Shown: piece after piece, positions 2 to 37,465 of the stretch
Numbering within the stretch: the first letter of the stretch is position 1
How the letters are laid out: every line of letters starts with the position of its first letter
Source: an uncultured Verrucomicrobiae bacterium
GTDB taxonomy: Bacteria > Verrucomicrobiota > Verrucomicrobiia > Chthoniobacterales > Chthoniobacteraceae
Direction: 5' to 3'
Assembly: GCA_963769025.1 (NCBI GenBank)
Contig: CAVYKI010000003.1
Location: 704,001-768,000 of the forward strand
Length of the DNA: 64,000 bases
Translations under genes and position numbers: made by a program
Notes under the pieces: generated by a model
The model's database searches: none
The model's input: only the letters and a program-made list of their open reading frames with translations
What the model was told of the DNA's origin: nothing

Positions 2-3000
2 GCCCTCTCCGCCAGCGATCGGACGGGAAACGATGCCCCCATGCCAGTCCGGTGGATCTACATCCTCGCGGACGGCACCCTCACGACCCCCGTCCCCCTC
101 ACCCGGCCCGCGAACGGAACCTTGGGCTTGATCGCGACATGGTCCACCGTCGGGCCGGATGGCACTTCCAAGACGGGCGTCCCGACAAAAACCAACCCCA
201 TCGTCGGGCGCATGGGCTTCTGGACCGATGACGACTCGTGCAAGATCAACCTGAATACCGCGGGCGGATTCGTGCTCCCGTCCGGCGTGGACGAAGACGT
301 CAACCTGAACTACACGAAGCCCACCAAGACGCTGCCCGAAAAGAACCCCGGTTACTATGCGGGCTCCTTTTGGGATACGCCGCGGGTGCAGACGTATTTC
401 GACCGGGGCATCAATAACACCAATGTCGAAAACTACCGCGGCGGGCTTTCCAACTCCCAGCCCGGGCGGAACGAGTTCCAGCGCTACCCCGGCCATCCCT
501 CGACGACCTCCCTCGGACTCGTGTTCAAAAATCTCCTGCCGGGCGTCTCGACGGGCTTCAGCTCGGCCAAGCTGTACGCGATGACCCCGCGCCTCATGCC
601 CGGCGGTTCGAAGAATGGCAACGCCCGCCTTGAGACCAAATTCGACCTGCCGTTGCCAATCAAATCCCGCTACACGGCGAGCAAGCCCGGCACGGCCGGC
701 TATCATCTCTTTGGCTCCGTCGATGAGCTCGCCTTCACAACCCTCAATGGCGAACGGAAATCCGTGGAGGATGCCATCAACGAATGGGTGGCAAGCCAGC
801 CCACGCCGACCGATGGCTTGCCGCCAGAGGTCCCGCTGCAGGAGGGTTCGCTCACCCCCGATATGGTGGACAAAGTGCGCTTCTTCCTTACGGCAAAGGG
901 CCGCTCGCCGGAGCTGAACCTTTTCGGCCGTCCCCGGGTGGCGATCTGGCCGGTTCCCAGCGCGAAACGCGAAGCGCTTCTTCAGAGCTACAACATCCGG
1001 AATGCGAGCGACGATTTCATCCGCTTCTGCGCGACAGTCGGGCGGAACAGCGATCCGACGACGCAGGCCGTCACCCGGCAGGGCGAATTCATCTTCGACC
1101 GCGAGGATCCCTATAGTTCCACGGTTGATTTCAACCTGCCCCGCAATCAGCAGGTTTTCGGCTATCTGCGGGAACTCACCTCGTCCTCCGGTGGCCAGAT
1201 TCCCGGGTTCGGCGGCAACTTCGAAACGAAGTACGCCAACGGCGCCGGCGGGCGGGATCAGATATTGACCGAGATCTTCGACTACATCCGGACCATCAAC
1301 CAGAAGGACGGCTCCCGGGAACGGACGATCGACGAAAAAACCGTCGCTCGCTCGCTCGTGAACAATCAGCTCAAGGCCGCCTCCCGCTACGCCCCCCACG
1401 CCATCGTGATTCCCACGCGCACGACCTTCGCTGGCAGGAAGGTCTCAGGCTTTGGCCGCTATCCCACCATCTCAGAAGCCACGTTGGTATTCTACAATGG
1501 CGGCTACACGTGTCAGCCTAAGAAGGGAAGTGACCTCGAGAAGGCGGACCTGCCGGACGGCGGGTCTGCGCGGACTGGAGGAAACAACGCCCTGGTCACC
1601 ATCTATGACCTGACAAAATCCCCCGGCGATCCCCGGGATCCCGCGTCGGCCCAGGCGAATCTGGATCGTACATCCGACTGGGCGAAGGCAAATGTCGAGC
1701 GATGGACCGGACAGCTCATCCGCGCGTTCGTGATATTCGAAACGTTCAATCCCATGCAGGGCTACGCGCCGGTTGATAACTTTACCAACATCAGCCTGGT
1801 GGACACCACGAAAGTGGGAACCGACGGGAAGCTGCAGCGGTACAATTTTGCTGACACCAACAAGGGCTTCTTCGTCCACGAGCTGAAGATCAACGGCCAG
1901 TTTGCCATCCAGACGGCCGGGTCGGGCGGCGCAAAGCCCATCGGCATCGGCGCCGGCACTAGCGGCGGCACCATCAAGAACTCATTCACCCGCACCTCGG
2001 GCGAAACGTGGGGAGGCCGCAATTTTGGCGGAATGGAAGGCTTCTTCCACACGATGCAGGACGACATTTCCTCCATTCCTTCCGCTGCCAACTATTATGC
2101 ATTCCAGTCCAGATGCGAGGATCTCGTCCGCGACGGCGTGCGCGTCGGACTCGAAGACAAGACGTTCGACTTCTTCGGCGGCGACATGGACCTGTTCATC
2201 CGTTACGAGGACAAGGCCGGCCACAACGAACAGATTCAGAAAATCACCCTGAACTTTCCAAACGCCAAGGGGTGGCCGTTGCCGACCCCGTCGTACCGCC
2301 TCGATACCGGGGGATTTGACAATCGGAATCCGGCCTTTGACAGCAACGGGGCCGACTCATGGCACGCGTGGGGCACATACTTGAAAAAGCACAATCTGCC
2401 CAGCGGATGGGGAATGGGCTACAACTTGCCTTCGAGGATCGCATGGAGCCGGGAGCACTCCTACAATCCTTGGACGAAATTCGACAAAAACGGAAAGCAG
2501 GTGGGGGACGGCTACCGCTACGCCAATCGTTTCCTGCAGATCGTCCAGCCAGGAGATACGATCCGCAGTCTCGTGGTCGGCGGCGGCGACCCGGCGGCGG
2601 CAGACCCGCGGATCGGTGCGCTGCAGCAGGAAGGCGGGACCATGCAGCCACATCCCGACTATTTCAGCACCACCAAGCGCCGCGCCGAGACGCTCCGTTA
2701 CGCCAGCGGGGGGTTCTACTTTGATCCATCGACGCCCACGTATGCGGAGCCGCCGGAAAGTTCCACCCAGCCGACCACAGGCTCGTTCATCCCACTCGCC
2801 GGCACGAAGTACAAGCCTGGTTACGGCCCGGATCTGGTGCGGACGGATTCCAAGGGGCAACCGTTCGTGGCTAAGCGGTCTGACGGCCAGCTCGCCGATT
2901 TTGACACAGGCATTGGCAGCTTTCCGGACGGCGCATTTGCCGGGAAGGCCGACGAAGGCAATGTGGCCGAGTATTGGCAGGACATCTGGGGCGTGTGGCA

Positions 3001-4000
3001 CTATGTGGAGCCCTACTTTACGACATGGGTCTATGATCCGCCGCTCGACACCTATTTCTCCCCAAATCGCCAGGTCCCGGGGCCCGTGATGTTCGGCTCC
3101 TTGCCGGCACCGCACAAAGATTGGTCGAAGTCCGGTTGGAAGACGCTGCTCTTCTGCCCGAACCCCGCCGGAGCCGGCCATCCCGGTGCACAGTCGCCAC
3201 CGGACCACCTGCTGCTGGACCTTTTCAACATGCCGGTGGTCGAGCCCTATGCCATCAGCGAACCGTTTTCCACCGCGGGAAAGGTGAACCTGAACTACCC
3301 GATGGTGCCATTCAGCTTCATCAAGCGCACGACCGCCCTGCGCGCCGCCCTGCATCCCCTTCGGGTGACTGCCATCCCGCAGTTCTTTGTCGATGGGAGC
3401 AAGCAGTTCCGCTATAAGGGGCAGGATAATGTCGAAAACTTCCGCTATCTCGTGGATCGGGATGAGACGCTGAAGGCGTTCGACGATTACTTCGACCAAT
3501 ACAAGAAGAACAGAAGCGGCGGCTTCTTTAAGTCTGCCTCTCAGATCTGTGAGCGCTACCTCTACCCGAAGGGCACGACCGTCGATGGAAGCTCGGTGAA
3601 ATTCACGAAGGGCGAAGGGCAGATCAAGGCGTTCTGGGAGAAAAACCAGCTCACGGGCGACAACGTCCGCGAGAAGCCGTACGCGGACCTCTATCCGCGG
3701 ATAACCACGAAGTCGAATACCTATACCATTCACTACCGCGTCCAGACGCTGCGCCAGCGAAAGTACACGGGAGATGCCAAAGGCGAAGATGCCTATTATC
3801 GCACTTTCGATGAAAGCCGGGATCGCGTGCTGGCTGAATTCCGCGGCAATACGACGATCGAGCGCTATCTCGACCCCGAAGATCCGCGCTTCCAGCCCTC
3901 ATACGTCCCGGCCAAGGACAGGATCGATGTCGAGAAAAAGTCCCTCGAGGAGGCTTACCGGTTCCGGATCATCTACAACAAGCGCTTCTCACCTTGGTAG
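2..4000 (+). CDS. vccA: Verru_Chthon cassette protein A (TIGR02600-like), 5'-partial
   Basis: Frame open from base 2. Family motifs recognised: MPVRWIY..DG, NPIVGRMGFWTDDDSCKINLNTA, FQRYPGHP.TTSL, FSPNRQ..GPVMFGSLP, PPDHLLLDLF.MPVVEPYAISEPFSTAGKVNLNY, GDNVREKPY..LYPRITTKSNTYT. The N-terminus lies outside the window. Confidence 0.88.
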   Translation, partial: ALSASDRTGNDAPMPVRWIYILADGTLTTPVPLTRPANGTLGLIATWSTVGPDGTSKTGVPTKTNPIVGRMGFWTDDDSCKINLNTAGGFVLPSGVDEDVNLNYTKPTKTLPEKNPGYYAGSFWDTPRVQTYFDRGINNTNVENYRGGLSNSQPGRNEFQRYPGHPSTTSLGLVFKNLLPGVSTGFSSAKLYAMTPRLMPGGSKNGNARLETKFDLPLPIKSRYTASKPGTAGYHLFGSVDELAFTTLNGERKSVEDAINEWVASQPTPTDGLPPEVPLQEGSLTPDMVDKVRFFLTAKGRSPELNLFGRPRVAIWPVPSAKREALLQSYNIRNASDDFIRFCATVGRNSDPTTQAVTRQGEFIFDREDPYSSTVDFNLPRNQQVFGYLRELTSSSGGQIPGFGGNFETKYANGAGGRDQILTEIFDYIRTINQKDGSRERTIDEKTVARSLVNNQLKAASRYAPHAIVIPTRTTFAGRKVSGFGRYPTISEATLVFYNGGYTCQPKKGSDLEKADLPDGGSARTGGNNALVTIYDLTKSPGDPRDPASAQANLDRTSDWAKANVERWTGQLIRAFVIFETFNPMQGYAPVDNFTNISLVDTTKVGTDGKLQRYNFADTNKGFFVHELKINGQFAIQTAGSGGAKPIGIGAGTSGGTIKNSFTRTSGETWGGRNFGGMEGFFHTMQDDISSIPSAANYYAFQSRCEDLVRDGVRVGLEDKTFDFFGGDMDLFIRYEDKAGHNEQIQKITLNFPNAKGWPLPTPSYRLDTGGFDNRNPAFDSNGADSWHAWGTYLKKHNLPSGWGMGYNLPSRIAWSREHSYNPWTKFDKNGKQVGDGYRYANRFLQIVQPGDTIRSLVVGGGDPAAADPRIGALQQEGGTMQPHPDYFSTTKRRAETLRYASGGFYFDPSTPTYAEPPESSTQPTTGSFIPLAGTKYKPGYGPDLVRTDSKGQPFVAKRSDGQLADFDTGIGSFPDGAFAGKADEGNVAEYWQDIWGVWHYVEPYFTTWVYDPPLDTYFSPNRQVPGPVMFGSLPAPHKDWSKSGWKTLLFCPNPAGAGHPGAQSPPDHLLLDLFNMPVVEPYAISEPFSTAGKVNLNYPMVPFSFIKRTTALRAALHPLRVTAIPQFFVDGSKQFRYKGQDNVENFRYLVDRDETLKAFDDYFDQYKKNRSGGFFKSASQICERYLYPKGTTVDGSSVKFTKGEGQIKAFWEKNQLTGDNVREKPYADLYPRITTKSNTYTIHYRVQTLRQRKYTGDAKGEDAYYRTFDESRDRVLAEFRGNTTIERYLDPEDPRFQPSYVPAKDRIDVEKKSLEEAYRFRIIYNKRFSPW

Positions 4001-4045
4001 GCCTTGGAGCCGCCGGGCGCATGGAAGCGCCACCCGCAAAGCACC

Positions 4046-4171
4046 GGCAGGACGGGCACCAGCATCCGTTTACAAAACAGCGACGCCTCTCACAGGCCGC
4101 GTGTGCATTGGGCGATCGTTCGCGCGTGCTCCCAGGTCAGCGGAGCACGGATGCTGTATCCGTTTCCTGCC
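4046..4171. repeat. Imperfect inverted repeat between convergent genes (possible bidirectional terminator or REP/MITE-like element)
   Basis: Left arm ggcaggacgggcaccagcatccgt (4046-4069) pairs with right arm acggatgctgtatccgtttcctgcc (4147-4171). An alternative hairpin cgtgctcc/ggagcacg lies at ~4125-4149. Confidence 0.5.
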
Positions 4172-4285
4172 CTATTTGCGCCCGACGCGGCTGCGGACAC
4201 CGGTGAACCGGCGGCGCTCGCGGTAGCCGATGAGCGCGCACAGCGCGACCGCGCCGATGAGCGCCGTGGTCGCGGGCTCCGGCAC
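4172..4285 (-). other. PEP-CTERM protein-sorting signal
   Basis: VPEPATTALIGAVALCALIGYRERRRFTGVRSRVGRK*: PEP motif, hydrophobic helix, Arg-rich tail. Confidence 0.92.
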
Positions 4286-7200
4286 AGGGACGATCTCAAA
4301 TCCGCCACCACCGAAGGTAATCTGGGCGCCGCTGCCGATGAAGGTGCTGCCGGCATCCGAGAAGAACAGGATGTTGTCGAGTTGGCCGCTGCTGTATCCG
4401 CTGTCAACCGAGAACAGGAACCGGTCCTGCCCGTCGCCGATGGTTCCCATGTCGGTGTCGCCGATATTGTAGAACGGCCCCGTCCAGTTGAAGACCCTCA
4501 GCGTGCCCGTGAACCCGGCGTTTGCGTTGGTGAACGTCAGCGCGTTGCCATTGACGTTGGTCCCGAAGTCCAGCGTGGATGTCCCGCTGAGCGTGAGGCT
4601 CATGAAGGTCTGGTTCTGGCCGGAGACGATGTTGCCAATCTGCGCCGTCCCGTCGGCGACGGTCAGCGTCGCCGCGCCGCCGCCCACGATGGTGCTCGCA
4701 TTGTTGTTCATCAGCAGCGTGCCGCCGCTGTTCACCGTCACCGCGGACGTTCCGCTCAGGGTGCCGGTGACCTCCAGCGTGCCGCCGTTGACATTCGTCG
4801 CCGCGGTGAATCCGCTGTTGCTGGTGCCCGAGATGGTCACGGTTCCCGCTCCGACCTTGGTCAGATCCGCAACGCCGGTGCCGGTGATGGCCCCGCTCAC
4901 GTTGAGTTTGTCACCAGCGGTCGCCGCTCCGATCGAGCTCGCAGTCTGCAAGGTGACCGGGCCGCCGACGGATGCGCTGAGTCCCGTGCCCGTCAGCGCG
5001 CCTTGCGAAGCCGAGCCGGTGCCGTTCAGGAAGATCGCCTCGCTGGCGACCGTCACGTTATTGATGTCCAGCGTGCCGCCCGCGCTGACCGTGGTGCCGT
5101 TCGTGGCTGCGCCGAGGCCCGCCGCGTTCGCGACGCTCAGGACGCCGCCGGTGACGGCCGTCGTGCCGGAGTAGGTGTTGACCCCGCTGACCGTCCAGGT
5201 CCCGGTGCCAGCCTTCGCCACACCCGTGTTATTCGTTCCGGTGAGGTTGTCCACGATGGCTCCGGCGATTTCGCCGGTTCCTGCGGTGGAGCCTTGCAAG
5301 GTCAGGGTCTTGTTCGCCCCGGCTCCCGTCGCGGTGAAGTCGCTCGTGAACTTCACAAGGCCCGTGCCCGACTGGTCGAGGGTGCCGCCGCCGGTGGTGC
5401 CGGCGAGGTCCACGACGCGGTCGGTCGTTTCGCCTGCGCCGGTGTAGATGAGCGTGCCGGTCGTGGCTGCCGCACCGAGGCCGATGGTGCCGTTGGCGAC
5501 CGAGTTGGGCGCGCCGAGGTTGCTGCTGGCGCTTGGTGCCGGGGTGGCCACGCTGTTGATCGAGCCGACGCTGATGGCACCGTTCTGGATGGTCGTCTTG
5601 CCGGTGTAGGTGTTCGGACCCGACATCGTCATCGTGCCCGTGCCGGTCTTGGTCAGCGAGTTCGTCACGGTGGCCGGGGTCCCTCCGCTCATGATGCCTG
5701 AGTAGACGGTGCTGCCGCCATTACCGCCGGTGGTCAGCAAGCCCGGGATGGACGGAGTGAGGCTGCTCAGGGTGACGAAGCCGCCGCCCGCGAGGGAGCC
5801 GATGGTTTCGGTCTGGCTGTTGACATCGAAGGTCGCGCCGGCATCGACCGTCAAGGCCGAGCCGTTCGGGATCCTGTCACCGGTCGTGCCGAGCTGCAAC
5901 GTGCCGCTGGCGACGGTGGTGGTGCCGCCGTAGACGTTCGTCGCGGTGGTGAACTGCGTGACGCCGGGGCCGCGGGTCGTCAGGTTGAAGCCGCCTGAAA
6001 TCGCGCCGCTGACGGTGAAGAGCGTCCCCGCGCTGGTCGCGGCGATGGTGCTGTCCGAGGCCATGATCACCGTGCCGGACTGGATGGCCGTGCCGGTGCC
6101 GTTGAGGGCGCCCATCAGATCCGCCGGGCCGTAGCCGAAGGCGGCGAGGTTGCCCGCCGTCGTGTCGCCCGCGCCGTTGATGGTCACGCCGATTTCTGCG
6201 CTGGAGGCATTGCTGATGTTCAGCGTGGCTCCGTTCGCCACCACGGTCGTGCCGGCGGTCGTGCCGAGGCCGAGCGCATTGGTGATTGAGAGCGTGCCGA
6301 CATTGATGTTCGTGATGCCGGTGTAGCTGTTCGCACCATTGAGGATCAGCAGTCCGGTGCCGGTCTTGGTCAGCGTGCCGGTGGTGGTGCCGATGATGGA
6401 CGAGATGGTCGTATTGCCGGTCCCGGTGACCGTGAGTCCGAACGTGGCACCGGAGAGCGTGCCGGGGTTCGACAGCGTGAGCAGGCCCGCGTCGGACTGG
6501 ATGGTCGTGTTGCCGGACAGGTTCACCAGACCGCCGTAAACGTTGTTGCCGCTCAGGTTGCGCAGCGCGCCGTTGCCACCGCTGCCGGTGCCGTTGAGCG
6601 TGAGCAGTTCGTTCGGGTCCACCGCGATGTTGCCCGAGAGCGCGAGCGTGGCGCCGCTGGAGACCTCCGTGCGGGTGCCGGCCGTGGCGTCGGCGGTGCC
6701 GAGGGCGTCGCCGTTGGTGATGCTCAGGATGCCCTGCGCGACGAGCGTCGTACCGGAGTGCGCATTTGCCGCGCTCAGGACGAGGGTGCCGGTGCCGGAC
6801 TTCGTCAGCGAAGTCGCCCCGCCGGTCACCTTGCCGGCGAGCGTCAGCACGTTGCCGCTGGTGACTGCGATGGTCGGGGTCGCGTTCGTCAGGGCGATCG
6901 GCGTGTTGAAGGTCGCCGTGCCGGTGGCCGCGCTGTCGGTGATGGCCGCCGCATCAACGATCGTCAGCGTGAAGCCACCCGTATTTTGCAGCACGATCGT
7001 GGACGCGTCGCTGATTGTCAGGCCGCCGATGCTCATGTTGCTGCCGAGCACCATGCTGCCCTGGTTCGTGGCGCCGGTGGCGGAGAGGGTGACCGCCGTG
7101 GACGATCCGGGGACCTGCCCGGTGGCCATCGTGCCCGCGGCATCGGTGGTCCAGTTGCTGTTGGCCGAGCCATCGGACACGGACCACACGTTGGCACCAC

Positions 7201-10200
7201 CCGCGAAGCCGCCCTTCCAGAACGCACCGGTCAGTTCGGCTGCGGGGAGGGTGTCCAAGGTCACCAAGGTATCAGTCTGATTGCTCAGGAGCATCGGGAG
7301 GACCGTGAAGTTGGTGTTGTTGTAAACATTGCCGATCATGTAGCTGCCGGAGCTGCCGTTCGACGTGGTGAGGCCGCCGGAAGGCGCGCTGATCACGGTG
7401 TGGGTGCCGCCAGGAGCCGAGCCGGTGATGCCATAGACATCGATCGAGGTGATGCCTGCGTGCGAGGCGAGTGCGCCGGTGTTGAGGGCGAGCTGGCTGC
7501 TGAAGGCCCCGGAGCCGACTTCCATGCCGACACGCTGCGTTGCGCCGCTGAAGGTGAGGACCGTGCCGCTGTTCGCGCCGAGGGTCAGGATCTCATCGGC
7601 GTTGATGCCCGTCCGCATGTTGAAGGTCGCGCCGTTGCCCACCGTGAGGCTGCTGGTGCCGCTGATGCCGTCGATCACTCCCGCCGTGGCGTGGGTGACT
7701 TCCAGGATGCCGCCGCTGACCACCGTCGAACCGACGTAGGTGTTGATGTTGCTCAGCGTCAGCTTGGTCGAGCCGGTCTTGGCGAGGTTGATGTTGTACT
7801 GGATGACGCCGCCGTAGATGGAGTCGAGCGTCGCGCCGCTGCCGACGGTGAGGGTCTTCACCTCGGTCGAGCTGTTGGTCACGTAGCCGCTGCCGGTGAG
7901 GTTCGTCGTCGCGGCGGTCAGGCCGGTGGAAGGCGAGGTCAGGCGGCCGATGGTCTGGTTGAAGCCGTTCAGGTCGAGGACCGAGGCGCCCGTGGTGCTC
8001 ACGTCGCCCGTCGTGGGCAGCGAGTTGTTGGCACCGATGCGGAGCATGCCCTGGAGGAGGTTCGTGCCGCCCAGGTAGGTGTTCGCGCCGGAGAGCGTGA
8101 CGGTGTCGTAGCCCTGCTTGGTCAGCCCGCCGGGGCCGCCGATCGCGCCTTTGATCTCGAGGATGACGCCCCTGGCCGTGTTGCCGAACGGAGAGAACGG
8201 ATTCGCCTGCACGCCGTTGTCGTAGCCGTTGATGCCCTGGTTGATGTTCTGACCGAGGAACGAGTTGCCGGCCAGCGTGAAGGTCACGCCGCTGCCGAGG
8301 GTGCGATAGACCGCGAACTGGGTGGCGTTGGCCGCAATGCCCTGGTCGTCCACCTTCACGAAGCCCTCGATGGAGCCGCCATTCATCGTCACCGCCACGG
8401 TGCCGGTCTGGTCGTTGTTAATCTGAAGCGTCCCTGCGCCTAGATTGATGGCTCCGGTGCGGGCGCCATTCACACTCCAGCGCTCGATGCCGCCATCCTC
8501 GTAGGTCACCGTGTTGGTGACGCCGCCCGCCGCGAAGATGTCGAGGACGCCGAAGCGCTTCACATTCACCGCGCCCGTGCCGAGCGAGGCGGTGTTGAAG
8601 ACGCCGACCTCTCCCTGCTCGATGCTCACGTTGCCGGCAAAGGTGCTCGCGCCACGGATGTAGAGTTCCGCATTGCCCCACTTCTTAAAGGTCTGGTCCG
8701 CGCTGCCCGAGAGGCTCGCGATGGACAGGCCGATGCCGGAGCCGGAGGTGAAGTTGTTGTTAATGGACGTCTGGCCGATGTTCAGGATGGCGCTCGCGTT
8801 CGCACCGACCAGCGAAACGTCGCCGACCTGGAGCAGCGCGCGCTGCTGGTTGGCGGTGAAGGCCAGTTGCGCGTCGTGCAATGCACCGCCCGTGGAGGTG
8901 ATGACCACGTTCGAGAACGAACCGGCGGCGCCGAGCGACTGGGTGCGATCCGCCGCGCCGGGGGTGTAGTTGATCAGGGCGTTGTCCGTCACGAGCAGGT
9001 TGCCCATGGAGTAGAACTCGTTGAGCGCGCTGCCCTGGTTGGCGTTGAGCTGGAGCGTGGGCGTGCCGGTGGCGTTGGCGTGGAGGGCCACGGTGTTCGT
9101 GGCCGTCGCATTGCCGAGGGCGCCAAAGACGTTGGCGACGATCGAGCCTTCGTTGACGTTCCAGCCGTTCGAGTAGCCGTTTCCCGGGCCGCGGGCCGCG
9201 TCGCTCTGGTCCTTGGCAATGGTGATCGAGGAGGCACCGAACTTGGTGATGCCCGCCGCGCCGACATTCTGGATGTCGCCGTTGATGGTGAGCCCGGCCT
9301 GGCTGAAGATCAGCGCTTCCTTGCCGTTGAAGTTCAGGTTCGGGTTAATCACCGCCGCCGCGTAGGCGAGGATGCCGCCGCCGCGCCGCACCCGCCTGGT
9401 TGAGCGTGATGGTGTTGAACTGGCCGAAGGCGTTGTTGACCGTGAATGCACCGATGCGGAAGGCGAACGTGGAGACATCGCCGGCCAGCGTCGTGTTGGC
9501 CGTCACGTCATCGATCCGCGTGTTGTTGTTCCCGCCGAAGTTCGTGCTGTTGTAGGTGACGTTGATCAGCCGGTTCGTGCCGCCGCCCGCGTCGGTCAGG
9601 AAGGACTGGCCGACTGCGTTGATGAAGCCGTTCACGATGTAAGCCGGCAGCATGTTCACGCCACCGCCCACCGTCGCAGGCAGGCCACCGGAGGCCACGA
9701 AGTTGTCGGTGTTGCCCGCCGTTCGTGCCGAAGGTGTCGCCGGGCACGAAGACCATCGTGCCGGTGCCGACACGGGTCAGGGAGGCAGCGGTCAGGACAG
9801 TTGCGTGTGGCAGGCACGCCGGGGTTGATGATGCCGATCCGGGAACCCTTGTCGAAGGTGATATGCCCCGACCGTTTCGGTGATGCCGACGTGGCATTCT
9901 GCGACTGGAAGAAGAGCGACGAGCCGTTCAGCGCGATGGCCGCGGTGTCGCTCCAGCGGTTCATGTTGTTGCCGGCGGTGATGCCGTTGCCGTCGAGGCT
10001 CAGCGTCGAGCCGGGGTGGAAGACGTAGGTGTTGGCGTTGTTCGGCCGAGCAGATCGCCGGGCGTGTTCAAGGCATTGCGGAACTGGCCGTTCACGCTGA
10101 CGGCGCCGAGGAGGCCGAAGACATCCACCGTGCCCGAGCCGAGCGGCGTGTCGCCGAGCGTGACGCCGGAACGGATAAACAGCGAGCTGCCGCGGCTGAC

Positions 10201-25200: not shown

Positions 25201-28200
25201 GGGATGGAGCTGCCGATCTCGACCGAGTTCGCACCGGAGAGCACGTTGTCCGAGCCCGCGAAGGTGAGGGCCACGTTGCTGGCGCTGTTGGCACCGAGGC
25301 GGTAGCGGCTGCCGTTGCCGGCGGTGAGGCTGCTGGCGAGGTACTGCACGCCGGCGGTGCCAAGGCTCGCGCCGTAGGCGCCGAGGAACTGGTTGCCGTC
25401 GCCGATCTGCGTCATGTCGAGCGCCGTCGTGAAGGTCGGGATGCCGATCTGCACCGTGCCGCCGAAGGCGTCATTCTGCGTGGTCGCAGTCAGCGCGCCG
25501 GTGCCATTGGTCGGGCTGAAGTCGCCATCGAGCACCAGTGCGCCGAAGCCGGCCGTGCTGCTGAGGATGTTCACGCCGGCTGCACCCGTGGTGCTCGACG
25601 AGGCCGCGATGCGCAGGTAGCCGCCCGGATTCACGATGACCATGCCGGTGCCCATCGGCGTGCCGGTGGTGCCCGTCACCTGGACGGCGCCGCCGGTGAA
25701 GATGTTCGTGCCGCCCGTGTAGGTGTTCGCAGTGCCCGTGATGCGCACGGTGCCGGTGCCAGTCTTGTTGATGGCAAAGGCCACACTGCCGGTGTCCTGG
25801 ATCACCCCGGAAAGCTCGACGACCGAGCGCCCGGCAAGGGCCGCAGCGGTGGTGACGTTGAAGACCGCTGCATTGCCGCCGGTGACCGTGCCCGCGAAGC
25901 GGATGTTCTGGCTGTCCGTGGACGGCGTCGAGGTAAAGACGGTGTTGCCCACCGTGAGATTGCCGAACTGGAAGTATTGATCCAGGAAGCCGGTGCCGCC
26001 GATGCCGCCGTTGTTGTCGGTCACGATCGAGGTGCTGGTGCCGTTGACGATGACGCTCAGGCCGATGGTGTTCGGATTGCCGATGATCGTGGCCAGTCCG
26101 GGGCCGACGCCGCCGGCGAACAACTGGAGGTTGCCCCCCTGCAGTTCCAAGGTGGTGGGCGTTCCGGAAGCGTATCCGCCCAAGGCGGAGGGCGTATTGA
26201 GCAACACATTGCCCGACCGCAGCACAAAGCCGCCGGTGAAGGTGTTGAGATTGGACTGCGGGTTGCTGCCGCCGCTGTTATGGCTGCCGTTGAGCTGCAA
26301 GGTGCCGGTGCCGCCCTTGATGACGCGGACCGTGCCGGCGCCATCCTGGATGGTTCCGTTGAAGACCGAGTTGTTGGTCGCCTCGACGATGAGCGTTCCC
26401 GCCGTGGCATTGGTATTGGTGATGATGCCCGCCGATCCGGTGAGGCGCACCGACCTTCACGTTCGTCCCGTTCAGGTCGAGCGTGCCGGCGTCGTTGAGG
26501 ACGATGTTATGCGAAGCCGGCTGTGCGGTCGCACCGCTGAACTGCACGGCGCCGGACTGCACGGCGAGACCGCCGCTGATGCGGTTGCTGCCGCTGAAGA
26601 GCAGGGTGCCGGGGCCAAACTTGGTGAAGCTGTTCGCGACCACGCTGCCGCTGAGAGTGGGCGTGCCGCTGGTGAAGCCGGTGCTGGTGTACACCACGCC
26701 TTCGCCATAGTTCAGGCCATTGAGCTGGGTGGCGCCGTTGTTCACAAAGCCGAAGAACAGGTCGGAACTGATCACCGGGGCCGCGCCGCCCGCGCCGTTG
26801 ATGAGGATGCCTCCGAGCTGGACCTGGTTGCCGGTCGAGCCGTTCGCCACAATTCGCAGGACTCCGCCGGAGACGTTGGCCGTGGTCTTGAAGGCGTAGA
26901 TGCTGTTCGTGCCCGTGAGAACCTGGGGGGTGGTGATGTTGCCGACCGCAGTGGGCGCAAGCGCGGAAAGGGTCGTGACCGGCGTCGTCGGCGCGCCGGT
27001 GAGGAAGCCGTTCGTCGTGTTGTAGGTCACGAAGTCCGCATCGCTGTTCGGCGCACCGTCCGCGAGGCGGACGATGACCGGGGAGACGATGCCGTTGAAA
27101 TTCGAGGAGGCCACAGCCACGCCCAGAAGCTGCGTCGTCGCGAGCAGCCGCGCACGCTGGCCGGCGGTCGCACCAAGATTGGCCGTGGGCTGGATGACCA
27201 TCGTGCCCTGGTTCGTGCGCTGGATGTTGCCGAAGGTGAACTGGTCGTTGAAGGCAACGCTGTTGTTGATGTCAAAGATGCCGCCACCATTGATGTTCAG
27301 CGTGCCGGTGTTGCCCGTCGCGTAGTCCGCCACGCCGGCATTCGTGATGCGGATGGTGCCGCCGTTGAGCGTCGTGGTGCTGTTGGTGCCGAGCGGGGCG
27401 GCCCCGGCGGTCTGCAGGACCTCGATGACGCCCGCATTGGCGCTCCATGGCGTCGCCGCGGCGTTCGTCACCGTGAGCTGGAGAGTGCCGGCCCCGACCT
27501 TGTGGAGCACGCCCGTGCCCGCCGCCGCGACCGTGCTGGTGACCGTCTTGTTGGCCGCGACCTCGATGGCGCCCGTCGTGCTCATCGTGATGACCCGGTT
27601 CAGGTTCGCGATGTTTTCCGTGAAGCGCAGCATCGGCGTGCCGCCGGTGCCGTAGTTGGCGCTCGCGTTGATTGAAGACAATGGCCCCGGGCGTCGCAGT
27701 GTTGCCGAGCTGGTTGTTGCGCAGAGGCGCTCACCACACCGCTCATGATGGTCAGGCCCGCAAAGCTGTTGTCGCCCTGCAGGACCAAGGTGCCCGAACC
27801 GATTTTCTGCAGAGCTGCCCGCGCCCTGCCAGATGCTGCTGCCATCCTGGGTGAGGATGCGGCCCTCGGCCACGTCCACGTTGCTGGTGGCGAGGAAATT
27901 GAGGTTCTTGTTCAGCGTGAACGACGCCTCCCACGCGCTGAGCGTGCCGCCATTCATGTTCACGTACGGATTCGTGCCGAGCTGGTTGCCGTCCGTGATG
28001 GCGATGTTGCCCGCGTTGATCAGCGTGATGCCCGTGTAGGTGTTCGCATTCGTCAGGCGCAAGGCGCCCACGCCGACCTTGACCAGGCCATTGTAGGCGC
28101 TCGCGCCATCGCTGATGACGCCGGAAAAGGTGACGATGCCGCCCTGCGCCTGGGCGTAGGGCGCTTGTGTTCACCGTGATGGTGCGCATCGAGCCGCCCA

Positions 28201-31200
28201 CCGCGCTGTTCGAGAGACCGACCGCGCCGCTGAAGGTAAGGTCGCCCGCCGTGCCGTTGAAGGCGCTGTTGAAAATCACGTCTCCCGCAAAGCTGATGGC
28301 ATTCGTGACCGTGCGGCCGCCAGCAAAGCCATGGAGGCGCTGCATTGCGTCGCTCTGGATCGTGCCGCCGTTGAAGATCACGGTCGCTGGCGCCAAAGGC
28401 ATTGGCATTCCCGATCTGGACAGTCTGGCCCTGGTTGATGAAGACGTTGCTGGTCGCGTCGAGGTTGTTCGACTGGTTGAGGACCACGGTGCCGCCGCCG
28501 TTGACCATGCCCACGGACGCGCCCTGGATGCTGTTGTTGATGGCGCCAAACTGCACCGTCATGCCGGAGCCGCTGAGTTGGTTGGCCCATTCATGTTCAG
28601 CACGCCGCCGCCGCCGCCGATGCGATAGACGCCGCTGCTGTCCGTGAGCGTGCCGGTGAAATTCGCAGCCCCGCTGGCCGTCACGCCGGTGCCCGCATTG
28701 ATGCCCGCGGAACTTCCGAGGAAGCTGGTGCCGCTGCCGATGGTGCCCTGATTGATCGCGGTGTCAAAGCCGAGCACATCCACGGCGATGACGCCGTTGA
28801 ACGGGCCACCGTTGGTGCCGTTGTTGAACGTGATGGCCGGGAGCGCGCCGCTGTACGCGAGGCCGACGACACCGAGTCCGGTGAGGTCGCTGTTCACCGT
28901 GAGACCGCCGGTGACGGTGTTGGTCGGATGCGCGAGACGGACGGTCCCGCCCGGGTTCACCGTGACGAGCCCGGAGCCGAACGGAGTGTCTCCGAGGCTG
29001 CCCGCGGTGGAGACGAGGATGCCCTGGTTGACGACGGTGCCGCCGCTGTAGTTGTTCTGCGCGACGGTGGCCGCGGCGCCCGCGCCATTGGTGAGCACCA
29101 AGGTGCCAGGGCCCCATTTCTGGATGGCGCCCGCGCCGGTGACCTGACCTTGGAGGAAGGTGGCGTTCACACCGCTGGTGGTCGTGAGGAGATTGAAGGC
29201 GGCACTCTGATTCAGGGTGACCGTGCCCGTGTAGACCTGGCCGCCGGTGAGGGTCAGCACGGTCGGATCGGGAGCGCCGCCGGTCCGCGCGGCAAACGTG
29301 AGGCTGCCGAAACGGGGAAGCGTCGGCGTCGTGTTGGAAAGGATCGCCGAATCATTGATCACCGTGATTGCGCTGAGGAAATTGCCCGCGGCGGCCGTCG
29401 ATGGGCTGACGTCGAGGGTGCCGCCCGCAAGGCGGATGGCGGGCGCGTCCACCACATACGGCGTGGTGGTGGCCGCGGTGGTGTTTGCGCCGAGGCGGAC
29501 ACCGAGGGCGTTCGGCGTGGCGAACCGCAGCGAACCCTGGTTGATGGTCACAGTCCCCGTCAGCAGCGGAGTCGCGGCGACGGTGCCGCGGCTGTCGCCC
29601 GTGAGCGAAAGGGTGCTCGTGCCCGCCTTGGTCAGCCCCGTGGCGTTGATGCTGCCGGAGAGAATCTCCACGAACGCGCCGCCGTGGGAGTCCCAGATCA
29701 TCGCCTCACGGTTGCCGGCGGTGCCGAAAATCCAGTTGTTCGTGTGGGTGCGGTCGGCTGTCAGTGTGCCCGTAAAAATCAACCCGGCTGGATCGCCCAC
29801 GGGGGCGCTGGCGCCGATGGTGATGGCTCCGGTGCCGGTGAGTCCAAAGTCGCCGTTGACCCGAAGGGCGAGCGCATTGCTGCCGACGATGGCGGCGGTG
29901 GCGGTCTGGTTGACGGTGTTCGCAGCCGTCGAGGTCAGGATGTTCGTGGAGGCGTAGGTGATCGGAGTCACACCGCCAGTGGCATTGTAGCCGACAAAGG
30001 TGGTCGCACCGGTGTGATCCACCAACCACGCCGGGAGCAGCGCCGGCGTGCCGATGGCGCCGCCGTTCAGATTGGTGATCATGAAGCGCGTATCCGTCGC
30101 GCCCATGGTGCCGCCGGTGGTCACGAAGCCGAGCGAGCCCGCGTTGGAGCGGTTCAGGTCGGTGAGGTTGATGCGCGCATTGTCCGTGGCGGCTACGCCG
30201 CGGGAGATTTCGATGAGGTTGCCGCCCTCGAAGTTGATCGTCGCGAGATTCTGGATCGTCGTCTGCGCGGCCGTCGTGGAGCCGAGGAAGCGGAAGTTGC
30301 CGCTGCTGAGATTCAGCGCGGTCGTGCCGGCCAGGCGGGGCTGGGTGGCGCTGGTCGTGTACGCGTTGTTGTTCAGCACCAGGCCGACATTCTGCCCGAC
30401 TGCATTCGTGAACGCGGTGTTCATGATGTTCACCGGGTTCGTGAACGTCTGCTGCGGCAGCGTTGCGGCGACATTGTAGGCACCGCTGAAGAGCAGCTGG
30501 CCAAACAGATTCACCTGGCTGCCCTGCGGGATGTAATCCTGGACGTCCGCCGTGCTGGTGATCTGAAGCGTGCTGGCGCCGCCCGCGAAGCGGTTCACGG
30601 TGGTGGAGCCGGTGTAGTTGTTGCCGGTGCCGCTCAGGGTCACGGTGCCGTTCATGCCGCCCGTTGCTCCGACGATGTTCGATACCGTGTGGCCGATGAT
30701 GATGCCGTTCGTGATTCCGTTGGCGAAGGTCAGGTCGCTGGAGATCGTCATCACCGTGCCCGCGGCATTGTTGGTGCCGAGCCGCAGGATGCCATCCGTA
30801 TCCGCGGAGATCGCGCCGCTGTAGGTGGCCGTGGCGCCGGCGCCCAGCCAGAACCGGCCGTTGCCGGCGGCGTGATTGCCGAGCTGGCTCATGTCCACCG
30901 CGTTGGTGATCGAGCCTTGGTTGGTGCGCAAGGCGGCACCGATCACGGGGCTGGTATAGATGCCATTGGCCGAGGTGCCGATCGCGAAGTTCGCACCCAG
31001 TTCGAGCACGCCGGGCGCATTGCCCGCCGTGGTGGTGCTGGTCGGCCCGGTCGGGCCCTGGGAAACATTTACGACACTCCCCACCGTGGACTGGATGGCG
31101 ATCTGCGAGGGGCCGGTGAGGTTGCTCGTGTCGCTGATCCGCAGAATCGCATTCGGAGCGATGTAAACCGCACCCGATCCCATGGTCGCGCCGGTGCCGC

Positions 31201-32332
31201 CGGCAAAGTTCAACTGGAGCACGCCGGCGAAGACATTCGTGCCGCCGGAGTAGTCGTTGGCGGTGGCGGAGGTGTTCGCGAGGACGAGCGTCGCGCCGCC
31301 GACCTTGTTCAGCGCACCCGTGCCCGTGATCTTGCCTCCCGTGGCGCTGCCCACGTTCACAGTCGGAGTTCCGTTGCTGATGGTCGAGACTGCGCCGGCG
31401 AGATTCAGGTCGCCGGAGAGCAGGAGACCGAAGCCGTTCGCCGCCGTGACCAGGAGCGTGTCGTTATTCAGCGTGAGCGGGCCGCTGATCGTGTGCGTCT
31501 GGTTCGAGCCACCGCCACCGATGGCGCGATCCACGTTGATGATGGAGTTGCCGCGGATTTCGAAGGTGTTTGCCACCGTCAGCGCGGTGTCGTTGAGGAT
31601 ATCGAACTGCGCGCCCGTGTTCAGCGTGATCGTGCCGGAAGTCCCCGCGGCGGCAGAGCTAAGGCTGACGGCCAGACGGCCCGCGTTGATCGTGACGCCG
31701 CCGTCGAAGGTGTTCACCCCGGACAACTGCACGAAGCCCGCGCCGTCCTTGGTGATGCCCCTCGTGAAAATCCCGTCGTCGATGACCCCGGTGATGTTGA
31801 TCCCCTGCCCCGCAAGCGCGTTGTTGATGACGAGGTTGCTGTTGAGCGTGACGCCGGTGGAGATGGTGTCCATGCCCGCGAGACTCGTGATGTTGAGACC
31901 GCCGTGGTTCTTGAACAGCAGCGCCGAGCCGCTGCTGACATCAAAAGTCAGCGAGCCGCCGCCCGCCGCGAGCGTGTAAACGCTGGAGCCCAGCGCATCG
32001 CCCAATTGCAACGTGCCGATGGTGATCGCGGCAGTCATGTTGATGACCTGGTTCGCCGTCAAATCCGCCAGCGAAAGGATGGCGATGTCGTCCTGCGCAT
32101 TCGGGAAGCCCGTGTTCGGCTGCCAGTTTGCGGTATCATCCCACGCAAACGGACCGGCCCCCGTCGGGAGCCACGAATAGGTCGCGGCTTCGGAAGGAAG
32201 TGCGCTCAGCGTGAGCAGCGACGCGGCGACGGCGGCAATGGAACCGGCGAGTGCAGAAGGCTTCCGAGTTTTTTTGCCGGCGCGCTGTTTTTTCTTATGG
32301 AACGCGCGGAAATTGAGGTGGGTGGTTTTCAT
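4172..32332 (-). CDS. Giant (~9,380 aa) secreted PEP-CTERM surface protein with autotransporter-associated beta-strand repeats, broken by at least 13 apparent indels
   Basis: Minus-strand ORFs 28559-32434, 28053-28562, 27752-28549, 26278-28071, 27600-27845, 22299-26450, 15584-22396, 10000-16872, 9656-9964, 9508-9897, 9345-9773 and 4172-9478 join into one continuous G/T/N/A/S-rich reading. ATG at 32332 starts a basic n-region, hydrophobic core and SEA|A site. Many LTKxGxGTLxLxGxNTYxGxTxxxxGxL repeats (TIGR02601/PF12951 type). C-terminal VPEP-TM-RERRR. Frame switches near 28588, 28388, 28163, 27817, 27722, 27673, 26447, 22464, 16877, 10047, 9890-9805, 9720 and 9388. Confidence 0.85.
9245..30800 (-). 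repeat. Hierarchical ~5.5-kb (~1,850 aa) protein super-repeats inside the giant gene
   Basis: Recurring markers: TPFGxGxxTVxPG at ~28980/23320/17815; ANSxTKFGPGTLL at ~26620/21060 (variant ~14910); Px(W/Y) at ~30027/24496/18969/12257/9640; GITKFG or GLTKAG at ~29630/23880/18440/9245. Confidence 0.75.
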
Positions 32333-32493
32333 CTTGATCGGCTCGGTAACGGTTATTCTGCCTCTGGGTGGATAATTTCTTGACCCGACTGCGAGATGCA
32401 GCGGGTGGAATGCGAATCCTGGCCTGCCGTACACGGGGGAGCGGACGAAGCCGGATACAGGCGGGCACAGGGGGACGGGAGACGCACACCAGC

Positions 32494-32522
32494 ATTAAGC
32501 GGATCGTTCTGCCGTCTGGCAA
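32494..32522 (-). promoter_or_regulatory. Putative sigma70-type promoter of the giant gene
   Basis: Minus strand TTGCCA (32522-32517), 17-nt spacer, CTTAAT (32499-32494), about 160 nt upstream of the ATG. Confidence 0.45.
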
Positions 32523-32534
32523 AAAGCTCCAAGT

Positions 32535-32551
32535 GTAGTGAAAAACACTAC
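32535..32551. promoter_or_regulatory. Palindromic putative regulator-binding site
   Basis: Perfect inverted repeat GTAGTG-AAAAA-CACTAC, 12 nt upstream of the putative -35 box. Confidence 0.5.
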
Positions 32552-32670
32552 CCGAGTGCGATCGGAGACCGGCATTTTGCCTGCCCGCCCGCGGGCAGAA
32601 TGATAAAAAACGCTGTTTCGCGCTTCAGCCCGCCTCGATCAGGCCGAAATCTACCGTCTCGACCTCGGAC

Positions 32671-33342
32671 TCAAAGGTTTCGCTCCACCATCCATCTCAC
32701 CGCACACTGGTAGAGCGCTCCCGCATTTTTGAGTCCCAACTTTTCCTTAATCCTTTGTCGGTAATTGTCCACCGTACTGACTCCGAGATTTAGCTGCTCG
32801 GAGATCTCGCGCGAATTCATTCCCTTGCCCACGAGTTGGAAGACTTCGACCTCCCGGTCGGAAAGCAGATTCATCCCGGTCGTCTCCACGGATTTCTCAG
32901 TCTGCCCGAGCCTTTCCAGAATCGCCACGGTCATCCGCTCGCCGAGGTAGATCCCGCCGTCCATGACCTTCCGGATCGCCGCGACCACCTCGTCCGGGGG
33001 CGCCTGTTTTGAAATGTATCCCCGCGCACCGGCGCGCAGCACACGTTCCGCGTACAGCTTCTCCTCGTGCATCGAAAGCACCAGCACGGGAAGCGCGATG
33101 CCCCGCGCCTTCACGTCCTTGATCAACTCCAGCCCGCTCGATCCCTCCAACGTGATATCCACGACCGCCGCATCCGGCTGCGTGCTCTCGATGATCTCCA
33201 TCGCGTCCTTGATGCTGGCGGCCTCGCCGCACACCGTCATCCCCATATCCTGCCCGATGAGCTGCACCAGCATCGCTCGGAAAAGCGGGTGATCCTCGAC
33301 GATGAGGATTTTCTTTTTTTCAACGGCGACGGAGTCGGTCAT
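32671..33342 (-). CDS. NarL/LuxR-family response regulator (REC + HTH_LuxR)
   Basis: KILIVEDHPLFR, phospho-acceptor VVDITL, VLVLSM, GARGYISK, and C-terminal LSDREVEVFQLVGKGMNSREISEQLNLGVSTVDNYR. Confidence 0.93.
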   Translation of the reverse strand: MTDSVAVEKKKILIVEDHPLFRAMLVQLIGQDMGMTVCGEAASIKDAMEIIESTQPDAAVVDITLEGSSGLELIKDVKARGIALPVLVLSMHEEKLYAERVLRAGARGYISKQAPPDEVVAAIRKVMDGGIYLGERMTVAILERLGQTEKSVETTGMNLLSDREVEVFQLVGKGMNSREISEQLNLGVSTVDNYRQRIKEKLGLKNAGALYQCAVRWMVERNL

Positions 33343-34372
33343 GGTCAGGGATCTCGGTTGGTGGCCGCGCGTCGGGCACCTCGCAGGAGACGATCGTCCC
33401 CTCGTTCGGCTTCGATTCGACCTTCAGTTCGGCCCCGAGAGCACGCGCACGGTATTGCATCGAACGCAAGCCCATACTTCTCGCGCCGCTTTTCAGGGAA
33501 TCCATGCCTTTCCCCTCGTCCGCGACGACGAGCCGCAACGAGTTGGCACCCTTGGTCAGCGCGATGGTGATCAGCTTCGGCCTGCCATGCTTCAAGGCAT
33601 TGGTCATCGATTCCTGCGCGATCCGGAAAAGGTGCATGGCGACTTCCGGATCTTCGACACGGGTCTGACCGGTTTCAAAAAATGAAATCGAGATTCCTGT
33701 CAGCGCCGCCGTGGTCTGGGCCAGATCCGCGAGCGCCATCGAGAGACCCGTGCCGTCCATTTGCACGGGAAATATTCCCCGCGCGAGCCCGCGGGCGAGT
33801 GAGATGGCATGGACCGCCATCTCGTGGATCTGCTCGGCTTTGTCCGCCTCCGGCTGCCCGCGTTTGCGCAATTCATTGGCCATGAACGACGCCGCGTAGC
33901 TGATCGCGGCGAGGTGCGGGCCGAGGCCGTCGTGCAGATCCTCGCCGATGCGCCGCTTTTCGTGCTCGCTCGTCCGGAGAATCTCCCGCTCCAGCTCCCG
34001 CTCGTGCTCGAGCCCGCGGATGCGCATCCTGTACAGGTCGCGCCGCTCCTTCGCCGCGGCCACGGCGACGACCAGGACCGCGAAGTAAAACAGCCGGCTC
34101 GTGCCCGCGAGCGCAAAGCCCCATCCGGTCTGGTACGGATGATTGGGAGTATTCGCGACGAACCAGACTCCCGTGCAAAGCAGCGCAAACAGGAATCCCA
34201 TTTCGCGGCCGATCCTCCGGACCACGAGCACCATGGGAAGCGCATAGAGCACGAACAGACTCCACTCCCATCCGGTGAGGTTGTCGAGCCACCCGACCAC
34301 CACCACCAGCACCGCGCTCACGGTGACGACGAGCCATCGCGGCTGACGGTCGATAAATTCGCCAAAGGACAT
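33320..34372 (-). CDS. Membrane sensor histidine kinase (HisKA_3 + HATPase_c)
   Basis: N-terminal hydrophobic helices, EKRRIGEDLHDGLG H-box, LFRIAQESMTNALKHG N-box, DEGKG and MGLRSM G-boxes. Overlaps the regulator start. Start chosen at MSFGE. Confidence 0.9.
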   Translation of the reverse strand: MSFGEFIDRQPRWLVVTVSAVLVVVVGWLDNLTGWEWSLFVLYALPMVLVVRRIGREMGFLFALLCTGVWFVANTPNHPYQTGWGFALAGTSRLFYFAVLVVAVAAAKERRDLYRMRIRGLEHERELEREILRTSEHEKRRIGEDLHDGLGPHLAAISYAASFMANELRKRGQPEADKAEQIHEMAVHAISLARGLARGIFPVQMDGTGLSMALADLAQTTAALTGISISFFETGQTRVEDPEVAMHLFRIAQESMTNALKHGRPKLITIALTKGANSLRLVVADEGKGMDSLKSGARSMGLRSMQYRARALGAELKVESKPNEGTIVSCEVPDARPPTEIPDHDRLRRR

Positions 34373-34602
34373 GGAGCACCCATAGGTGCTCACACGAAAG
34401 ACAACAAGGACGGGCTGCCTCGATGGTGCGTCGGCTCGCGCAAGGACTGCATCCTGCCGGTGCACGGAAAGTTATCCCTAATCGCACGCCGCGCGGCGGC
34501 TACTCATTGGTGAACCGCCCCACACGACCCTCCCCCGTGACGATTCGCCTCCCTTTGAACAACCGATCAGCAGCATCCCGCGCGGGCGGGATTGTCATTT
34601 TC

Positions 34603-37452: not shown

Positions 37453-37465
37453 CCCACTCCACTCC

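Follow-up and report, generated by a model that had tools for sequence, protein, structure and literature searches.

The stretch of DNA analysed here (the window) spans 64,000 nucleotides, C3:704001-768000, of a 5.34-Mb genome bin that comprises 13 contigs and is 83% complete, and the named homologues of the window proteins belong to Chthoniobacteraceae. On its minus strand the window carries a sensor kinase gene (HK1), a response-regulator gene (RR1) and a very large PEP-CTERM surface-protein gene (giant 1), and, facing the end of giant 1 from the plus strand, the gene for protein A of a Verru_Chthon cassette (vccA). HK1 probably acts through RR1 and a palindromic box to switch giant 1 on, with vccA, most likely a gene of the module upstream, predicted to encode a lone tip. 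The gating of giant 1 by the pair, which had been put forward in an original prediction made on this DNA, is well supported by comparative sequence evidence, i.e., by the conservation of the box, by the way in which the box tracks one regulator clade, and by the giant genes that neighbour the pair in relatives.

The kinase-regulator pair

HK1 (33320..34372, minus strand) encodes a 350-aa kinase with HisKA_3 and HATPase_c domains above cut-off, and RR1 (32671..33342, minus strand) a 223-aa NarL/FixJ-family response regulator with Response_reg and GerE (LuxR helix-turn-helix, HTH) domains, likewise above cut-off. Both lie directly upstream of giant 1 in the same orientation; this arrangement had been predicted, and the domains and coordinates confirm it. 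The N-terminal domain of HK1 is short, hydrophobic and weakly DUF4118-like, a similarity beyond which no name could be given to the sensor domain, and there is no large periplasmic domain. Since the scores against named families fall far under the NCBIfam cut-offs (NarL, 115 vs. 250; UvrY/GacA, 132 vs. 280; NarX, 57 vs. 578; UhpB, 110 vs. 408), HK1 and RR1 are placed in the broad NarL/FixJ family only, and are not NarX/NarL, UvrY/GacA or UhpB/A proper. RR1 is without an AAA+ domain and so is not a sigma-54-interacting regulator of the NtrC type.

A conserved box at giant-gene promoters

Between RR1 and giant 1 lies a 6-5-6 palindromic box, GTAGTG-N5-CACTAC (32535..32551), which its conservation marks as a candidate RR1 operator. 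It is followed 12 bp downstream by a candidate -35 element, TTGCCA (32517..32522, minus strand), whose TTG is kept at the same distance in relatives, and 17 bp from that by a weak candidate -10 element, CTTAAT (32494..32499, minus strand), found at the aligned position in five orthologous loci. As stand-alone evidence the palindrome was rejected, since 61% of 300 shuffled versions of the intergenic sequence held at least one inverted repeat with 6-bp arms; it is at chance level, and its worth comes from conservation. The five orthologous intergenic regions all (five of five) carry this 6-5-6 site with its end exactly 12 bp ahead of TTGCCA, TTGCTC or TTGTAA, and a weak -10 element lies another 17 bp on. 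The box is a conserved site and the putative operator of RR1.

The association with the regulator was followed in a tree of 30 regulators (two of them identical, and the relatives' loci being kin and hence not independent), in which a box was counted when a symmetric matrix, built from seven sites in five related loci, gave a score of at least 11.5 within 450 bp downstream. In a clade of 17 members (support 97/94) the box was present after 9 of the 12 regulators not used in training, and after 0 of the 13 regulators outside the clade, compared with 2.2% in shuffles. Two of the three misses within the clade, G201 and G222, have the giant gene upstream of the pair, and there the box, the 12 bp and TTGC are found at the giant's own promoter (scores of 9.4 in G201 and 14.2 in G222), with nothing at 11.5 or above after their regulators. 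The box thus stays at the giant's promoter in rearranged loci, i.e., it tracks giant-gene promoters. Two loci from another genus were found afterwards: in G470 the order is kinase, regulator, box and giant, the giant being of 7,498 aa, and in G448 boxes scoring 18.4 and 15.1 lie at the promoter of a convergent giant of 8,256 aa. A TTG exactly 12 bp after the best box was seen in 11 of 20 untrained regions, some of which were picked after the G470 and G448 result had been seen; the remaining offsets between 5 and 24 gave just two cases.

The best untrained match in the window's own genome (19.8, at C12:348818) stands before another PEP-CTERM giant, of about 6,850 aa (C12:328016-348540, 28 frame breaks). 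Three of the nine other large PEP-CTERM genes of this genome score at least 12.5, compared with 19 of 1,755 intergenic windows. Next to the C12 match, at about C12:348900-349120 (L314), three 34-base direct repeats separated by two 32-base spacers lie between two giants and resemble a tiny CRISPR array.

The pair travels with giant genes

Kinases of the HK1 group (matches at E<=1e-85) occur in 11 of the 150 further genomes of the family, and a metagenome contig (L151) adds one regulator orthologue; scans with the regulator alignment gave one orthologue in 80 metagenome loci and none in 80 genome loci, unrelated receivers dominating the matches. Four kinase loci reach contig edges (G005, G398, G454 and G455), which leaves nine informative loci including the window, and a giant surface gene adjoins the pair in eight of these nine (seven PEP-CTERM, one Rhs). 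The PEP-CTERM giants beside the pair in relatives are intact, with 7,350 codons in G014, 7,330 in G004, 7,498 in G470, 8,256 in G448, 8,765 in G201 and 8,054 in G222. On the metagenome contig (L151:1543-7434) what follows the orthologous pair and box is a gene for an Rhs-repeat/DUF6531 protein with no fewer than 1,964 codons. The giants beside the pair are not orthologous: among 15 other giant sequences no orthologue of giant 1 was found, nothing scoring above 250 bits. The putative switch is conserved, and its cargo varies.

The same evidence bears on the possibility that another factor binds the box, or that RR1 represses there, the pair being a mere passenger beside giant genes. The binding of RR1 to the box is a prediction, boxes also precede genes that have no adjacent pair, and one pair (in G456) has no giant neighbour. 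However, the box follows the regulator tree (9/12 vs. 0/13), and it sits at a fixed place upstream of the -35 element without overlapping it, which is an activator position; NarL-family activators have sites upstream of, and not overlapping, the -35 element. This explanation is judged quite unlikely.

Besides the solitary pair in G456, several observations weigh against control of giant 1 by RR1 through the box. A simple consensus promoter scan gave no sigma-70 site between RR1 and giant 1, so that of the palindrome and promoter originally predicted there the palindrome stands, and the promoter comes down to the conserved TTG of the -35 element and a -10 element that is weak. The matrix has a narrow training set drawn from kin, and part of the 12-bp statistic comes from regions chosen after the fact. 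Six of the nine other large PEP-CTERM genes of the genome are without a box, many strong matches fall within genes, and the genes that follow paralogous pairs of the clade are of other kinds (DUF7694, an efflux adaptor, a pilin). Nor is there a clear box at the seven vcc-linked giants found in relatives (best scores 3.1-11.4).

Boxes at vccB promoters or at vcc-linked giants were sought and not found, and major pilins as general box targets gave a mostly negative result, with 5 of 45 upstream regions scoring at least 12.5 (shuffles 1.7%), three of these five matches having been seen before the pilin test. Among individual sites, an array of four major-pilin-like genes in the same genome (C12:514195-516423, L358) has a box (15.5) before its fourth gene, and in G178 (L145:2180-2651) a clade regulator has a near-perfect box 10 bases past its stop codon, with a major-pilin gene coming next; by eye, many pilin promoters of the family show a sigma-54-like TGGC...TGC pattern. 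In two other genomes (G004:C6 and G014:C9; L316, L318, L320 and L323) two tandem membrane-protein genes each carry the box, the 12 bp and TTGC; their products, partial open reading frames (ORFs) without a Pfam match, resemble TMTC-type glycosyltransferases, an assignment which is tentative. Paralogous clade pairs at L148, L149, L150 and L359 have DUF7694 genes at their flanks, and boxes stand before these genes, L359 being assigned by resemblance only.

Giant gene 1 and its frame breaks

Giant 1 (4172..32332, minus strand; ATG at 32332, stop at 4172) was delimited by a read-through and by PATR matches as a PATR-repeat PEP-CTERM surface-protein gene. The 28-kb gene for a product of about 9,400 aa that had been predicted is real, but it is split in this assembly and not a single ORF; about 9,394 aa are obtained once 13 frame breaks are bridged. 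The read-through used a codon model for which three intact giants from the same genome served as the training set, and gave 13 breaks at a strict penalty and 17 at looser ones, with no internal stop on the best path; in a control run, two of the training giants needed zero breaks. The product is rich in Gly (15.6%), Thr (13.9%), Ala (11%) and Asn (9.3%), holds 25 PATR-like motifs by pattern search, and gave Pfam PATR matches in all three pieces scanned; no internal repeat was found at E<1e-15. Its N-terminus shows by eye a basic N-region, a hydrophobic stretch and Ala-x-Ala, and its C-terminus (4175..4285, minus strand) a sorting signal with VPEP, a hydrophobic helix and an Arg cluster, which scores 18.4 bits with TIGR02595, above the cut-off of 16 for PEP-CTERM proteins, and 17.8 with Pfam PF07589, below the cut-off of 20.7. 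A classical (type Va) autotransporter was considered and rejected: the protein terminates in the sorting signal, and in its last 1,709 residues Pfam finds PATR and PEP-CTERM only and no beta-barrel translocator.

The breaks raise the question of whether giant 1 is a decaying pseudogene and the module inactive in this strain. Two other giants of the genome have no break where giant 1 has 13, and 7 of the 13 are unmatched among the contigs listed. Against this, a crude genome-wide screen of 5,343 coding-like segments gave 693 frameshift candidates, and housekeeping genes are likewise split by frame breaks. The best path has no in-frame stop, and the giants beside the pair in relatives are intact (7,330-8,765 codons). 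Contigs of related strains are one base shorter at 9385, 16878, 22464, 27718, 27814 and 28162, differences which coincide with at least 6 of the 13 inferred breaks among the contigs listed, each resting on a single low-depth contig (runs X3 and X4 resemble one data set). No contig among the matches listed bridges the junction of vccA and giant 1. The breaks are most likely assembly (long-read) errors, and decay of giant 1 is a highly improbable explanation.

Three exosortase genes (PF09721, above cut-off) are present in the genome, as are secretins. One of the three exosortase genes, at C3:774152-774886, lies about 6 kb past the window end.

vccA and a second module upstream

The 3' part of vccA occupies 2..4000 (plus strand); the gene encodes 1,559 aa and starts 680 bp before the window. 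The protein scores 650 bits with TIGR02600 (780 was also obtained) over a cut-off of 332, and is a protein A by that measure. As predicted, giant 1 converges on it, vccA ending at 4000, 171 bp from the giant 1 stop at 4172. The cassette that had been described for this locus is reduced to vccA alone: genome-wide HMM searches place vccB, vccC and vccD elsewhere, vccB and vccC above cut-off at just two places, C3:954-956k and C9:590-592k, and vccD at just one, C3:960k (plus weak or partial matches). Upstream of vccA, where the missing genes were to be looked for, there is instead a divergent kinase-regulator pair, HK2 and RR2 (L001:15314-17151; 35% and 49% identical to HK1 and RR1), and then a second PEP-CTERM gene, giant 2 (C3:687164-700562; about 4,470 aa, 10-12 frame breaks). 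Two kinase-regulator-giant modules are arranged in tandem here around vccA.

A 99-bp element before vccA (C3:703177-703275) is identical to one before giant 2 (C3:700933-700835) at 64 of 99 positions in an ungapped alignment; no other place in the genome exceeds 50. Because this promoter element is common to vccA and giant 2, vccA is most likely wired with giant 2 and the HK2/RR2 module upstream of the window, and not with giant 1. A variant box lies inside the element, scoring 13.7 before giant 2 and 9.7 before vccA. The copy at vccA is unfavourable to regulation of vccA through the box: 9.7 corresponds to 7.9% of background, and the 12-bp geometry faces HK2 and not vccA, the TTG toward vccA being 56 bp away. 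The recognition helices of RR1 and RR2 are similar, and cross-talk between the two regulators would be possible.

According to an earlier reading, a single conserved system for export and display consists of the pair, giant 1 and a Verru_Chthon cassette dedicated to it. The convergence of vccA on giant 1 agrees with this, as do the operons without vccD in a tally of 28 other vccA loci with adequate flank (five on short contigs were omitted, two in G011, one in G013 and two in G010, and G045 and G440, which came up later, are excluded), in which a gene for a PATR or PEP-CTERM protein of 1,800 aa or more lay within two genes of 8 of 16 vccBCA operons without vccD, of 0 of 7 cassettes with vccD and of 0 of 5 orphan genes; the eight giant-linked operons fall in about two related groups and are not independent. 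In addition, P0002, the nearest homologue of vccA, and P0197, a kinase of the HK1 family, are each from a contig of exactly 8,151 bases; this may be one and the same contig, and perhaps another case of a kinase beside vccA. On the other side, vccB, vccC and vccD are lacking here; in the DNA examined, no vcc gene neighbours any of the 12 other kinase/regulator-group loci; vccC immediately precedes 14 of 14 further vccA genes that are close to that of the window, found in 151 family genomes; and the promoter element of vccA is common with giant 2 and not with giant 1. The three-part conserved unit is largely refuted and now very unlikely, and with it the proposal that the cassette helps to export giant 1; what remains is a weaker form, with Vcc proteins that resemble pseudopilin tips, D-less operons beside giants, and a promoter element common to the lone vccA and giant 2.

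The genome has four vccA genes, two of them orphans; of the others, one is in a B-C-A-D cassette that has no giant and one in a B-C-A operon with a 5,910-aa giant two genes away. In the genus, orphan vccA genes that lack B, C, D and a giant neighbour turn up repeatedly (G003:C3, G010:C219, G015:C23, G014:C3 and G000:C9:862-866k), which suggests mix-and-match tips. A divergent vcc-like operon of the order D-B-C-A-A, below the TIGR cut-offs, was seen at C3:36593-44732 (L015:6593-14732), its two shorter A-like genes having about 990 and 1,030 codons.

Vcc proteins as predicted pseudopilin tips

The fold of VccA was approached through a homologue, P0121 (1,154 aa), modelled in place of the window protein (mean pLDDT 77, pTM 0.83). 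Over residues 43-1154 it matches the T2SS (type II secretion system) tip proteins GspK (3ci0_K; Z 10.6, rmsd 3.4, 253 of 280 residues) and XcpX (5vtm_X; Z 10.6), with an overall rmsd of 3.4-3.5 over 237-253 residues for such matches, the next row being ComZ at 5.4. The window VccA aligns with P0121 at both ends (33% identity over 721 columns, 44% over 377 columns). The use of a homologue counts against the assignment, as does Foldseek, in which VccA had no match at E<=0.001; an HMM search of VccA against the PDB also gave nothing significant. Pfam PilX_N was detected in 4 of 25 VccA proteins, in one above cut-off. For VccC of the window's genome, a Thermus type IV-like pilin stands on top and EpsJ, GspJ and XcpW follow, all tied at Z 9.0-9.8; VccD matches Pfam GspH above cut-off, and VccB shows the methylation motif only. 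From these models, the cassette appears to be a set of minor (pseudo)pilins that form a tip and include a K subunit of giant size, and the window vccA is predicted to encode a GspK/XcpX-like tip pseudopilin with a large insertion.

Such a tip could serve secretion or attachment. It is plausible, at roughly even odds with an adhesive pilus tip, that a Vcc-tipped pseudopilus carries giants across the outer membrane. In the alternative, VccA would sit at the end of a type IV-like pilus as an exchangeable tip for adhesion or substrate binding, and its co-regulation with giants would stem from a common programme of surface attachment. The inserted region of VccA includes a beta-sandwich part (with weak matches only), most vccA loci have no giant (none of the seven D cassettes, none of the five other orphans, and 8 of the 16 D-less operons being without one), the genome has the four-gene major-pilin array, and the top fold match of VccC is a pilin, tied with GspJ proteins. 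Yet VccA matches GspK/XcpX best, far over ComZ, and related C-terminal sorting systems depend on secretion of this type: according to a preprint (bioRxiv 10.1101/2023.06.07.544157), GlyGly-CTERM and MYXO-CTERM proteins require the T2SS to reach the surface. As an account of the locus, the adhesive tip is held to be a tentative possibility that falls short of the preferred reading, a pair-driven switch of giant 1 with VccA as a lone tip.

Proposed mechanism and neighbouring genes

In the preferred reading, HK1 would sense a cue in or at the membrane, since it has no large periplasmic domain, and would phosphorylate RR1. RR1 would then bind the predicted box, centred near -56, and activate, not repress, the giant 1 promoter. 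The protein would be exported by Sec, cut at its PEP-CTERM signal by one of the three exosortases and displayed on the surface, where it would serve as adhesin or matrix protein, a role considered likely because PEP-CTERM proteins mediate floc formation in Aquincola and Zoogloea (PMC9850573; bioRxiv 10.1101/2023.06.07.544157). The lone VccA would have to borrow VccB and VccC from another locus. A broader version of the model, in which the regulator clade and a GTRGYG-N5-CRCYAC box switch interchangeable giants (PEP-CTERM proteins of 7,000-9,400 aa, and one Rhs) and co-induce stand-alone giant GspK-like tips as cargo-specific adaptors on a shared pseudopilus, with export through a secretin, is regarded as unlikely. 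The locus is composite, and not a self-contained export system.

Divergent from HK1, at window positions 34423-39340, are DUF1549/DUF1553, DUF1501 and WD40 genes, a common PVC cluster; no sign of a link between this cluster and HK1 was seen, and there is no box upstream of HK1 (score 3.3). A KamA-family radical SAM gene follows at 39783-41174.

Comparison with known systems

Two-component control of PEP-CTERM genes is known from Proteobacteria, where it relies on sigma-54 and PrsK/PrsR; new here is a probable switch of NarL type, with an operator that can be defined, for the giant surface proteins of Chthoniobacteraceae, situated by an orphan GspK-like gene of a neighbouring module. Outside subscription papers and supplements, no literature was found on this regulator clade or its box, nor on Verru_Chthon, TIGR02600/02601/02598 or "Chthon cassette".

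The likeness to PrsK/PrsR lies in the combination of a membrane kinase with a response regulator and a conserved DNA site upstream of PEP-CTERM genes, in a genome with exosortases. PrsR is a sigma-54 activator of the NtrC type, in contrast to the NarL/LuxR-HTH regulator and HisKA_3 kinase found here, where the site is a 6-5-6 palindrome with a -35 TTG and the targets are proteins of 7,000-9,400 aa. In the founding paper (Haft et al. 2006; PMC1569441), PrsK/R/T are not listed for Verrucomicrobium and further regulators and motifs are described as yet to be found, so that the control of PEP-CTERM genes outside Proteobacteria was left open there. A regulator clade, an operator sequence and a promoter geometry are now concrete and testable. 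With NarX/NarL, UvrY/GacA and UhpB/UhpA the pair shares a HisKA_3 kinase, a receiver-LuxR HTH regulator and a palindromic upstream site; unlike them, it has no nitrate-sensing periplasmic domain and belongs to a Chthoniobacteraceae clade with a box of its own.

The Verru_Chthon cassette is defined by TIGR02600 (A), TIGR02598 (B), TIGR02599 (C) and TIGR02596 (D), and the window vccA is a TIGR02600 member. The window has A only, in contrast to the order B-C-A(-D) usual in the genus; orphan A genes recur, and vccD is mostly confined in this genus to one cassette type without a giant. Such cassettes are reported in the TIGRFAM comment to adjoin very large PEP-CTERM or autotransporter-repeat proteins.

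The closest structural counterpart is the T2SS tip, GspK-GspI-GspJ (3ci0) and XcpVWX (5vtm), in that the GspK/XcpX fold, with a long N-terminal helix and a sheet closed by C-terminal strands, spans the VccA homologue from its N- to its C-terminus, the GspJ/XcpW fold is seen in VccC, and VccD matches Pfam GspH, by which tip-pseudopilin folds are assigned to unstudied Verru_Chthon proteins. VccA differs from the T2SS subunit in having some 850-1,250 extra residues inserted in the fold, and in occurring in several paralogous sets per genome, apart from other T2SS genes, a role in secretion being suggested by analogy. With these folds in hand, the crossing of the outer membrane by anchored proteins of 1 MDa becomes testable in a widespread soil lineage.

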